A stretch of DNA of 10,564 nucleotides from a virus, in the UHGV virus genome UHGV-1326494. The stretch is one strand, 5' to 3'. The notes under the pieces are model-generated. The model ran no database searches, was not told the origin of the DNA, and saw only the letters and a list, made by a program, of their open reading frames with translations. The position numbers were made by a program, and so were the translations under genes. Positions 6,686-8,975 of this stretch are shown here, one piece after another. Position 1 is the first letter of the stretch. The number at the start of each line of letters is the position of its first letter.

Positions 6686-6871
6686 TTATGCCGCTTTGCG
6701 GTAAGCGCTTTCTTGATACTTCAGGGCGCCAGCTGTAACGACTTCCAGTCGATAGGCGTCTTTCTCTGGGATGACTTCCTTCCACTGAGAGACTGCTGCG
6801 TCGCTAATGCCTAACGCTTTAGCTACAGCACGCTGGGTTCCGAAGTGGTCGATAACATCTTTCTTGTACAT
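6686..6871 (-). CDS. cro: Cro repressor (P22 Cro-type, 61 aa)
   Basis: ORF track 61 aa, MYKKDVIDHFGTQRAVAKALGISDAAVSQWKEVIPEKDAYRLEVVTAGALKYQESAYRKAA, with a helix-turn-helix. Divergent from the repressor across the operator region. Confidence 0.9.
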   Translation of the reverse strand: MYKKDVIDHFGTQRAVAKALGISDAAVSQWKEVIPEKDAYRLEVVTAGALKYQESAYRKAA

Positions 6872-6951: not shown

Positions 6952-7602
6952 ATGAAAACTCAATTGATGGGAGAGCGCATTCGCGCTCGGAGAAAAGAAC
7001 TCAAGATCAGGCAGGCCGCACTTGGAAAGATGGTCGGCGTGTCTAATGTTGCCATATCTCAGTGGGAACGCTCTGAGACAGAGCCAAATGGAGAGAATCT
7101 TCTCGCCCTGGCTAATGCGTTGAAGTGTTCCCCTGACTATCTGATGAAAGGAGAGGAAAGTCTTTCAAACATTGCCTATCACAGTAGGCATGATCCAAGA
7201 GGGTCATACCCTCTGATTAGCTGGGTGAGCGCAGGATGCTGGATGGAAGCTGTAGAACCATATCATAAGCGTGCAATAGATAACTGGTACGATACAACCG
7301 TAGACTGTTCAGAAGATTCGTTTTGGTTGGACGTGAAGGGAGACTCAATGACGGCTCCGGCCGGTCTCAGTATCCCTGAAGGAATGATAATACTCGTCGA
7401 TCCTGAAGTAGAGCCGCGTAACGGGAAACTGGTAGTTGCAAAGCTCGAAGGAGAAAACGAGGCAACTTTCAAGAAGTTAGTTATTGATGCAGGCAGGAAG
7501 TTTCTAAAACCACTTAACCCACAATATCCGATGATCGAGATCAACGGAAACTGCAAAATCATCGGCGTAGTTGTCGATGCAAAACTAGCAAACCTTCCAT
7601 AA
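6952..7602 (+). CDS. c2: Prophage repressor, P22 c2 / lambda cI family (216 aa) with HTH N-domain and LexA-like autocleaving C-domain
   Basis: ORF track 216 aa. N-terminal HTH (QAALGKMVGVSNVAISQWERSE) and C-terminal S24 peptidase-like domain (AG cleavage region, VKGDSM serine motif, a K near the C-terminus). Length matches P22 c2. Confidence 0.9.
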   Translation: MKTQLMGERIRARRKELKIRQAALGKMVGVSNVAISQWERSETEPNGENLLALANALKCSPDYLMKGEESLSNIAYHSRHDPRGSYPLISWVSAGCWMEAVEPYHKRAIDNWYDTTVDCSEDSFWLDVKGDSMTAPAGLSIPEGMIILVDPEVEPRNGKLVVAKLEGENEATFKKLVIDAGRKFLKPLNPQYPMIEINGNCKIIGVVVDAKLANLP

Positions 7603-7629
7603 GGGGGCATTCGCCCCTTTTTTTTATTT
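7601..7629 (+). terminator. Intrinsic terminator immediately after the repressor gene
   Basis: Hairpin aagggggc-attc-gcccctt (7601-7619) followed by a T-run (to 7629). It overlaps the repressor stop codon. Confidence 0.7.
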
Positions 7630-7649
7630 CCTTTAAAAATCAAAGCCAA

Positions 7650-7722
7650 ACTTAAGTTACGAAAGAAAATTTAAGTTTTCTTCAAAAATACTCTTGACCA
7701 TTAATTAAAGAGATCTTAAATT
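7650..7722 (+). promoter_or_regulatory. OL/PL region: PL promoter with an embedded operator
   Basis: -35 TTGACC (7694-7699), 17-bp spacer, -10 TAAATT (7717-7722). Operator-like site attaaagagatcttaaat (7703-7720) sits in the spacer. Further TTAAG/CTTAA half-sites at 7650-7680 are candidate extra operators. Confidence 0.6.
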
Positions 7723-7767
7723 TAAGCCATCAGCAGGACGCTGGTAGCCAAACGGAACAGATTGGCA

Positions 7768-7809
7768 GGCTCTTTAACATTGATGGGATTGTCCCGCCGA
7801 AATGCGGGA
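7768..7809 (+). promoter_or_regulatory. nutL: boxA plus boxB hairpin downstream of PL
   Basis: boxA GGCTCTTTAACA (7768-7779). boxB stem cccgc (7793-7797), loop cgaaat (7798-7803), stem gcggg (7804-7808). The RNA is identical to the nutR boxB transcribed from the opposite strand. Confidence 0.6.
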
Positions 7810-7980
7810 ACCAAAGAGTAGTTGGCTTTGGGGTGTGGTGAAGGGTTCATGGACGGGAATATGTCGCACGTAAAGCGGCGAGGCCTGCGGAACTATTGCC
7901 GAATTGAAGTCGGACGAAGCGGGTCGAAATGGGTCTCCCACCTACCACACCACCAAAGCTAATCATCTGAGGAACAAAAA

Positions 7981-8100
7981 ATGTTAGACATCATGACCAA
8001 CCCAATTCTCGGTGGTTTAGTTACCACATTCGCCATCTGCTTCGGTTTCACTATCTGGTCTGAAGTAGATGACTGGATGTGGGAACGCAAAAACAAATAA
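7981..8100 (+). CDS. Candidate small hydrophobic protein (39 aa) in the PL leader between nutL and the N-like gene
   Basis: ATG at 7981 preceded by GAGGAA at about 7 nt. MLDIMTNPILGGLVTTFAICFGFTIWSEVDDWMWERKNK has one predicted transmembrane segment. No homology claim. Confidence 0.3.
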   Translation: MLDIMTNPILGGLVTTFAICFGFTIWSEVDDWMWERKNK

Positions 8101-8140
8101 TCATCGTCACACAAGGATGTGTACCTTCCCGGAGGTCAAC

Positions 8141-8413
8141 ATGACAGTAGTCATTACATATCTGGCTGACGATAATGCCAGAAATCGCCGCAGAGCACGC
8201 AGACAGGCTCAACGTGAACAGGCAATGCAAGAGCAGCGACTGGCGCGAAAAATTGCGCTAAAGCTCTCTGGTTGCGTCAGAGCAGACAAAGCAGCATCAC
8301 TCGGAAGCCTTCGCTGCAAGAAGGCAGATGAATGCAGTGGAAGTATTTGCCTGCCAAACGTAGCTCTTTACGCGGCAGGCTACCGGAAATCAAAACAACT
8401 GACAGCGAGGTGA
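8141..8413 (+). CDS. N-like transcription antitermination protein (90 aa from the GGAGG-supported start; alternative 114-aa form from ATG 8069)
   Basis: GGAGG 6 nt upstream of ATG 8141. Arginine-rich motif NARNRRRARRQAQREQ near the N-terminus. The C-terminus (...VALYAAGYRKSKQLTAR) resembles what I remember of P22 gene 24. Located downstream of PL and nutL. Confidence 0.75.
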   Translation: MTVVITYLADDNARNRRRARRQAQREQAMQEQRLARKIALKLSGCVRADKAASLGSLRCKKADECSGSICLPNVALYAAGYRKSKQLTAR

Positions 8414-8435
8414 CGATCCCCGCGCCGTCGAGGAA

Positions 8436-8975
8436 CTAAATTAGCTCATCAGCTTTACCAGCAAAGCGCATATAACACTCATGGAACCAGACGTCAGGTA
8501 TAACAAATTTCTCTTTACCTGACGCGCTGTAAGTCACACCTGAGCGATGGAGAAGGCCTTTTCTCATAAGAGATAAAGCGACCGGATCGCCGTGCTTAAG
8601 TACGATTTTGTTATTTGCCATAACAGCAAATGCTAAAACCTCTTTTTCCTGAATACTCAGAGAATTGAATAGGCGCTCAGTCTCCACAATTACTTTAGCC
8701 TCATCTATCTTACTGAGATATTTTTTATATCTGTCTGAAGATGCCAGAAATATAAACTCCACCCCCCTGTTCAGAACATAACTGATACACAAAAGCATTG
8801 CGTAATACATCCAGTGATCTGGAAGTATTTCGGGGTTCCTTATATCTACCCACTCTTTAATTGATGCTGGGGTGATTATTATCAAGGTAATTAAAATAAT
8901 AAGCATATGAATTAACTGTTGTAGCGTAAGACCACGCAGGAAGAAACGTAATAGTTCCTGCCACCAGTTACTCAT
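8436..8975 (-). CDS. Membrane protein antisense to the PL operon (179 aa); superinfection-exclusion SieB-like by position and architecture, family not confirmed
   Basis: ORF track 179 aa. GGAG about 8 nt upstream of the ATG at 8973-8975. Two predicted TM segments (LIHMLIILITLIIIT and WMYYAMLLCISYVL) followed by a soluble domain. The gene is visibly AT-rich compared with its neighbours and is convergent with the N-like gene. Confidence 0.65.
   Translation of the reverse strand: MSNWWQELLRFFLRGLTLQQLIHMLIILITLIIITPASIKEWVDIRNPEILPDHWMYYAMLLCISYVLNRGVEFIFLASSDRYKKYLSKIDEAKVIVETERLFNSLSIQEKEVLAFAVMANNKIVLKHGDPVALSLMRKGLLHRSGVTYSASGKEKFVIPDVWFHECYMRFAGKADELI

Follow-up and report, generated by a model that had tools for sequence, protein, structure and literature searches.

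A predicted single-pass membrane protein encoded between nutL and gene N in the PL leader of lambdoid prophages

Comparison of homologous sequences indicates that a small open reading frame (ORF) between nutL and the HK620-type N gene of a lambdoid immunity region is a protein-coding gene under purifying selection. We consider it probable, with some reserve, that this is a genuine gene for a 39-residue single-pass inner-membrane protein, which would be the first cistron of the PL transcript, expressed immediate-early and independently of N, and acting as a protein. The ORF was studied in UHGV virus genome UHGV-1326494, of which a stretch of 10,564 nt, here called the window, was analysed as a whole. 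Its frame, start, stop and ribosome-binding site are conserved in diverged relatives, changes within it are mainly synonymous, and its product belongs to a family that also occurs in virulent phages.

Results

Organisation of the immunity region

The window is identified by its P22-type immunity region, which it carries in reverse orientation. A cro-like gene (6686-6871, minus strand) lies beside the gene for a c2-like repressor of 216 aa (6952-7602, plus strand), at the end of which there is a terminator-like stem-loop (7601-7620). A consensus scan places a PL-like sigma-70 promoter (TTGACC, 17 nt, TAAATT) at 7694-7722 on the plus strand, in alignment with the pL annotated in HK620; the conserved motif CATCAGCAGGA (7728-7738, plus strand), which heads nearly all of the leaders compared, is the likely start of the transcript. 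Both elements of nutL follow on the same strand, boxA as GCTCTTTAAC (7769-7778) and the boxB hairpin as TCCCGCCGAAATGCGGGA (7792-7809), the stretch being identical to the one annotated as nutL in HK620; boxA and boxB lie 3' of PL and 5' of N in the manner of a lambdoid N leader. In the minimum free energy fold they are succeeded by a long stem of 20 bp (7821-7963, plus strand; 5' arm 7821-7840, 3' arm 7943-7963) with a structured interior of about 100 nt.

The small ORF and its immediate surroundings, all on the plus strand, come next. A first copy of the direct repeat TAATCATC (7960-7967) marks the upstream edge of the small-ORF module; the Shine-Dalgarno (SD) sequence GAGGA (7969-7973) stands 7 nt 5' of the ATG; the ORF itself, 39 codons for a predicted single-pass membrane protein of phrog_7482, occupies 7981-8100; and the second copy of TAATCATC (8098-8105) includes its stop codon. 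Eight nucleotides past the stop codon RNAalifold predicts a small hairpin, ACACA-AGGA-TGTGT (8109-8122), after which the SD sequence GGAGG (8131-8135) serves the gene for an HK620-type antitermination protein N of 90 aa (8141-8413; phrog_271, E = 1e-33; Pfam PF25694 N_peptide, E = 5e-16), some 97% identical in DNA to the N gene of HK620. Directly after N, on the minus strand, is a SieB-type superinfection-exclusion gene of 179 aa (8436-8975; phrog_1301, E = 3e-92; Pfam SieB, E = 3e-19). The stretch from PL to N is free of predicted intrinsic terminators, an Rfam search of the window at E <= 1 gave no match, and ARAGORN called no tRNA in it.

The first-pass annotation had described the small ORF as overlapping, in another frame, an upstream extension of the N-like ORF. 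An item beginning at ATG 8069 does stand in the list of open reading frames, but the extension is spurious and N starts at 8141; we rejected a real overlap with N because the extension is without homology support and the annotated N gene of HK620 measures 273 nt. A further in-frame ATG is found 24 nt 5' of the N start (8117-8140), in the 3' arm of the post-stop hairpin and directly after its AGGA loop. The E. coli alleles have it in the frame of N and one diverged locus (L034) does not; it is probably not a start.

The predicted peptide

From ATG 7981 to TAA 8098-8100 the ORF specifies MLDIMTNPILGGLVTTFAICFGFTIWSEVDDWMWERKNK. Its first description, as 39 codons with a good ribosome-binding site and a single-TM product, agrees with the start at 7981, the GAGGA 7 nt upstream and the one hydrophobic segment that the peptide contains. 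This segment spans residues 9-27 and has a Kyte-Doolittle 19-residue mean of 1.74, a value that in the E. coli allele is barely over the usual transmembrane threshold of 1.6. AlphaFold2, given an alignment of 13 sequences, models a short helix at residues 2-6 that breaks off at Asn7-Pro8, then one uninterrupted helix from 8 to 38, with a mean pLDDT of 86.5; the peptide thus has a single hydrophobic segment of bilayer length, predicted to be helical, as is expected of a single-pass membrane protein. Its layout would be a short N-terminal turn (MLDIM), the invariant Asn-Pro break and one helix crossing the inner membrane (residues 9-27), which would run on into a Trp-rich charged tail (SEVDDWMWERKNK) that is probably cytoplasmic. 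All of its lysines and arginines are C-terminal of the hydrophobic segment, and by the positive-inside rule the predicted topology would be N-out/C-in.

Evidence for coding

The length of the ORF is by itself no proof of coding, given that 38% of mononucleotide shuffles of the 412-nt leader hold a closed ATG ORF of at least 39 codons; it is the comparative data that settle the question. We collected 17 distinct nucleotide versions from 40 loci in E. coli, E. albertii, Citrobacter and metagenomes, and every one is intact at 39 codons (40 in a single case), in a sample that favours intact copies inasmuch as most of the diverged homologues came via predicted proteins. All 17 have an ATG with an SD sequence 5-8 nt upstream, though the upstream sequence is otherwise not alignable. 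Scans of IMG/VR, metagenomes and E. coli genomes that were anchored on the invariant N-terminal 20-mer, and did not demand an intact C-terminus, found the 39-codon ORF intact in 32 of 32 loci, and the three least-identical E. coli copies recovered by plain DNA search are intact as well.

The pattern of substitution is that of a translated frame. The pooled pN/pS of the ORF frame is 0.26, that of the other two sense frames 1.29 and 1.26, and the variable sites at codon positions 1, 2 and 3 number 21, 16 and 36 of 39. When alignment columns were shuffled, all 17 sequences were free of stops in just 10 of 20,000 trials, and the share of changes that falls on third positions (0.54) was matched in none of 20,000. 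Synonymous sites are near saturation (pS 0.6), and protein identity averages 72%. At closer range, the alignment of two E. coli alleles is free of indels and shows 17 differences over 117 positions, ten of them at third codon positions; the binomial probability of seeing 9 or more synonymous changes among the 17 is 0.0025. Comparison of the window with the AR_0058 allele gives a dN/dS of 0.17 in frame and 0.81 and 2.29 off frame.

The first-pass annotation had proposed to look among relatives for indels or stops in the frame and for the balance of synonymous and nonsynonymous change. Changes proved to be mainly synonymous, with frame, length, start, stop and SD sequence kept in the 17 versions, and the only disrupted relatives found were two large rearrangements. 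One of these (L048) has lost 2.1 kb, window positions 8047 to about 10155, and N and sieB with it; the other (L049) is a low-coverage contig in which position 8053 is fused to an integrase region. They show that the gene can be lost, though only along with neighbouring genes. A side observation concerns the same part of the ORF: of the differences between the two E. coli alleles, 16 fall in ORF nt 4-66 and just one beyond, and the breaks in L048 and L049 are at 8047 and 8053, which suggests a recombination junction inside the gene at about 8046-8053 (codons 22-24).

On the opposite strand there is an open frame of 51 codons with a TTG start (7959-8114, minus strand), and its register, -2, is open in 16 of the 17 versions. 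This register shares its third positions with the sense frame, so that periodicity alone cannot choose between the strands. We rejected it as a gene on other grounds: its pN/pS is 0.41 against 0.27 for the sense frame; it has no constant start, end or SD sequence, contains an internal stop in one member (L039) and has no predicted promoter; and distant homologues are annotated on the sense strand, within co-directional gene arrays with SD sequences. The antisense open frame is a mirror effect of the sense gene and not a gene. With start, stop and frame conserved, an excess of synonymous change and the mirror frame set aside, the small ORF has the general properties of a protein-coding gene.

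The leader stem and the insertion of the module

The stem that precedes the ORF is itself a conserved structure. Its duplex energy in the window is -32.6 kcal/mol, compared with -15.9 for shuffled arms, and a stem of 17-20 bp is kept in 11 lineages whose arms differ in sequence, with energies of -24 to -33 against -9 to -16 kcal/mol when shuffled. The base of the stem is invariant (GCTTTGG/CCAAAGC), the upper arms vary by lineage yet still pair, and the interior ranges from about 10 to 240 nt. In lambda-type N leaders an RNase III-sensitive hairpin reportedly modulates translation of N (Kameyama et al. 1991; Wilson et al. 1997, 2002), and the long stem described here is a probable analogue of it.

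Within the leader, a 140-bp element (7826-7965) is 95-98% identical to a stretch found just 5' of N in 933W, HK97, Stx phages and mEp234, and of 5,426 E. coli genomes, 877 match some part of the region 7800-8140 when it is used as a query. Since this element is like that of HK97 and 933W while nutL and N are of the HK620 type, the leader is itself a mosaic. A variant of the stem occurs in E. coli AR_0058 (L002, 2928-3009), where the upper stem and interior are formed by a tRNA-like element that scores 38.2 bits against Rfam tRNA (gathering threshold 29) and is called tRNA-Pro(tgg) by ARAGORN and tRNA-OTHER by PGAP. Where a 7-nt anticodon loop would be, it has an insert of 15 nt, and the conserved CCAAAG overlaps with its CCA end; this variant may be an RNase P-type site in place of one for RNase III.

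In HK620, HK97 and CUS-3 the stem lies directly before the ribosome-binding site of N and there is no copy of the small ORF; HK620 has a single uninterrupted junction, AATCATC-GGAGGTCAACATG, at this point. The window instead carries a module of 138 bp (7968-8105), composed of the SD sequence, the ORF and the second TAATCATC repeat, between the stem and the ribosome-binding site of N. The direct TAATCATC repeats at its flanks, taken with the uninterrupted junction of HK620, imply that the ORF entered as a discrete module between the stem and the translation start of N. As a result, the ribosome-binding site of the small ORF now holds the stem-adjacent place that belongs to the N site in HK620 and HK97. 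The leader of lambda is regarded as untranslated at this place. The first-pass annotation had made that comparison with lambda, and it carries over to HK620, HK97 and CUS-3, which we found to be without this ORF; for lambda itself it is background.

Distribution and annotation

Homologues were sought with a query padded by one in-frame residue, with a longer homologue leading the alignment and with degenerate DNA patterns. None of 50,697 phage records contains the lambdoid form; DNA matches in them split around the ORF, and tblastn gave no close copy. It is present at 84-99% identity in 31 of 5,426 complete E. coli genomes, and in none of these 31 does PGAP call it; strains with the locus include SCU-308, E189 and E148. 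Profile searches added further diverged members from Citrobacter, E. albertii and metagenomes, and a remote profile search of 1.84 billion representatives added three more; two other products of that search (P0010 and P0011) were discarded as spurious repeat proteins. A scan of species-representative genomes found no copy, and the taxonomic range given here is that of protein-source names and the E. coli genomes. Several of the diverged members had been called with spurious N-terminal extensions, two of which begin 'MLFNN', that is, boxA read in frame.

The neighbouring N gene is not always recognised by annotation either. In several complete E. coli genomes PGAP labels it only 'hypothetical protein' or 'regulator' (L005, 2342-2641; L050, 576-881; L051, 576-848; L052, 570-878), and the small ORF upstream of it is uncalled in all of them.

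Searches of NCBIfam, PADLOC and PDB sequences with the peptide returned empty or insignificant matches and Pfam returned no accepted one, a match to TrbC being rejected as sub-threshold (13.9 bits against a cut-off of 27.9). A search of the literature yielded nothing on the small ORF, its family or a translated N leader.

The phrog_7482 family

A clear relationship was found in PHROGs v4, where the peptide matches phrog_7482, a family of unknown function, with E = 8.1e-25 and 87.5 bits, residues 1-39 aligning to positions 1-39 of a 46-position profile. The diverged lambdoid members match the same family, as do proteins of virulent Mooglevirus and Avunavirus phages of Shigella, Citrobacter and E. 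coli that are annotated as hypothetical or membrane proteins. A profile-profile comparison (hhalign) of the lambdoid and virulent-phage forms gives a probability of 97.8% and E = 8.5e-13. The two forms have in common the pattern M-x-[DE]-I-[IL]-x-NPIL-x-G, one transmembrane helix and an acidic-aromatic-basic tail; examples from virulent phages are gp86 of Shigella phage Sf18 ('putative membrane protein'), gp115 of Citrobacter phage Michonne and Av05_0034 of Escherichia phage Av-05. These proteins of enterobacterial myoviruses are about 35% identical to the peptide and longer, at 45-46 aa compared with 39, and their helix is more hydrophobic (Kyte-Doolittle 2.5-2.7 compared with 1.74). Their genes stand in arrays of small genes of unknown function and not in a PL leader, and no N gene was seen in the neighbourhoods fetched.

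One further member, of 40 aa, stands alone (L039, 3001-3123; Logan contig of SRR33471208). It is followed by a terminator-like stem-loop (GGGGCTTAGGCCCC and a T run) and adjoins the genes for a YadA-anchor adhesin and a lipoprotein; lambdoid genes are not visible in the 3.7 kb fetched. The protein family, then, had already been clustered in PHROGs and is sporadically annotated as hypothetical, while its position in the lambdoid locus is unusual and apparently undescribed. That the ORF might be a real small membrane protein had been one of two readings put forward in the first-pass annotation, and both the signature of purifying selection and the membership of a family common to virulent phages speak for it.

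Relation to N

Among the lambdoid relatives the position of the ORF is strict. In all eight diverged lambdoid loci fetched, the order is repressor, PL, CATCAGCAGGA, boxA, a lineage-specific boxB, long stem, SD sequence, small ORF and N, and the ORF thus lies beside N in every one of them; this position is found neither in the virulent phages nor in L039. The partners themselves are exchanged freely: the ORF is paired with several repressors, at least five types of boxB and at least five types of N, the latter distinguished by the starts MTVVITY, MTVIVYGK, MTKFIAS/MTTLIAS, MTNREHK and MTRRTSF. The gap from its stop codon to the ATG of N is 38-40 nt across five N types and 57-58 nt in two loci (L036 and L041), where a larger hairpin is followed by an N of the 933W type.

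RNAalifold, applied to 10 versions, supports the post-stop hairpin with five pairs, of which one covaries (GC in 6, AU in 3, AC in 1). No conserved RNA structure joining the ORF to the ribosome-binding site of N emerged from the same 10 versions, and the SD sequence of N is unpaired in the consensus; a local hairpin that sequesters it in the single-sequence fold was rejected because it is not conserved. RNAalifold also draws a hairpin inside the ORF (8048-8082; 12 bp, G-U rich), between the codons for FTIWS and DWMW. Its pairs hardly vary because Trp and Met fix the bases, it shows no compensatory change, and one of its pairs is broken in two lineages.

Discussion

In proposing a role for the small ORF, we need to account for a protein sequence under purifying selection, with relatives in virulent phages, and also for a position that, in the lambdoid loci, is always directly before N. 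We suggest that, of the cistrons on the PL transcript, the ORF comes first, after nutL and the long stem and before N. As the first ORF after PL, with no terminator predicted before N, it would be made upon loss of the repressor and without antitermination by N. The product would be a membrane protein, most likely acting through association with itself or with a membrane protein of host or phage, as other tiny single-pass proteins do. An autonomous function is indicated because the amino-acid sequence is selected, because homologues occur in lytic phages with no nearby N, and because the copy in L039 stands alone. Translation of the ORF stops 40 nt before the start codon of N and may modulate translation of N as a side effect. 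The strict lambdoid position, the near-constant spacing and the conserved small hairpin fit such a link with N expression, since a free-standing accessory gene would not need them; a secondary effect on N translation, the other of the two readings in the first-pass annotation, is possible but unsupported.

The same three features can be given more weight, and the ORF read as a regulatory uORF, in which translation itself, and not a peptide acting elsewhere, sets the level of N. Ribosomes could clear the post-stop hairpin and be delivered near the start of N; they could keep the leader translated and hence shielded from Rho or RNases; or the ORF could have taken over the stem-adjacent place of N translation control in phages such as HK620. 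Its place directly before N in eight diverged loci at a gap of 38-40 or 57-58 nt, the covarying pair in the hairpin, and the replacement of the ribosome-binding site of N beside the leader stem by that of the ORF are all as such a device would have them. Selection, however, has acted on the amino-acid sequence and not on mere translatability, the family persists in virulent phages away from N and as a stand-alone gene with its own terminator-like stem-loop, no conserved structure pairs the SD sequence of N with the ORF or its surroundings, and a gap of 40 nt is long for classical termination-reinitiation coupling; that regulation is the main role of the ORF seems to us unlikely. A related and bolder proposal, that the small ORF and the long stem make up a swappable cassette for post-transcriptional control of N, in which membrane insertion of the nascent peptide anchors the growing PL transcript at the membrane or gates ribosomes to N in the manner of MifM, strikes us as very improbable. 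If it were true, the phage's first regulatory decision would be tied to the state of the host membrane or to the insertion machinery, and the tRNA-like stem variant would represent an alternative processing signal that uses RNase P instead of RNase III.

Two readings depart further from an autonomous early protein. By its size and shape (under 50 aa, one transmembrane helix, a charged tail) the product resembles many small membrane toxins, and it might be a membrane-damaging toxin (like a type I toxin, like a holin, or an effector of abortive infection) that, made early, would depolarise or kill the cell. We hold this to be quite improbable: searches of Pfam, NCBIfam and PADLOC gave no toxin, holin or defence family for the peptide; a toxin made immediate-early, ahead of N, would leave the phage no living cell in which to develop; virulent phages retain the gene among early-looking small genes; and no promoter-like site was found on the minus strand in 7400-8600, although with a simple consensus scan such an absence is weak evidence. 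The other reading denies that the ORF is translated, and would make it a chance frame in a leader RNA conserved for RNA-level reasons, or a shadow of a real gene at 7959-8114 on the antisense strand. The ease with which shuffled leaders yield an ORF of this length, the near identity in nucleotides of the 3' half of the two E. coli alleles, the hairpin predicted within the ORF and an antisense register that stays open while sharing third positions with the sense frame could all be cited for it. Yet pS has reached 0.6 while the protein still averages 72% identity, the internal hairpin lacks compensatory change and is broken in two lineages, and the antisense frame is the less constrained of the two, with no constant boundaries, SD sequence or promoter, an internal stop in L039 and distant homologues annotated opposite to it; that the ORF is untranslated seems to us exceedingly unlikely.

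If the ORF does encode an early membrane protein, the account of the first events after induction changes for the subset of lambdoid prophages concerned, those in 31 of 5,426 complete E. coli genomes as well as those of Citrobacter and E. albertii. Before antitermination N has been taken as the sole product of PL, and here a membrane peptide would come first. The locus is a concrete case in which a small, conserved phage protein has gone unnoticed in a leader presumed to be untranslated. That the family is common to temperate lambdoid phages and virulent enterobacterial myoviruses points to an early role at the host membrane that may be general. The insertion also shifts the ribosome-binding site of N some 160 nt from the stem, and so provides natural variants for the control of N synthesis by leader processing and proximity to nutL.

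The structural features of the locus have counterparts in several known systems. Nascent-chain regulators of the MifM, VemP and SecM class share with the small ORF an N-terminal membrane segment, a conserved C-terminal tail and a place just 5' of the regulated gene; here, in contrast, there is no conserved structure sequestering an SD sequence and no known arrest motif, and homologues occur without a downstream N. The lambdoid N leaders of lambda, HK620, HK97 and 933W have the promoter, boxA and boxB, and long stem in the same order as the window, the resemblance being closest to HK620 in nutL and N (about 97% identical) and to HK97 and 933W in the stem element at 7826-7965 (95% identical). 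There the ribosome-binding site of N comes immediately after the stem and the leader is untranslated, whereas here the 138-bp module intervenes. Processing of the stem by RNase III would be expected by analogy with lambda (Kameyama et al. 1991; Wilson et al. 2002).

As a protein, the peptide may be set beside Kil and CIII of lambda, which are likewise small products of the leftward early operon and act on host functions; these, however, are encoded downstream of N and tL1, depend on N as delayed-early genes, are not transmembrane and are unrelated in sequence. Its nearest likeness in form is to the AcrZ, MgtS, MgrB and CydX class of E. coli, which it resembles in size (about 30-50 aa), in its one transmembrane helix and in its short charged tail. 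It is common for members of that class to work through a larger membrane protein to which they bind. No sequence relationship to them appears in Pfam, NCBIfam or PDB, and unlike them the peptide is phage-borne and placed under the control of PL.
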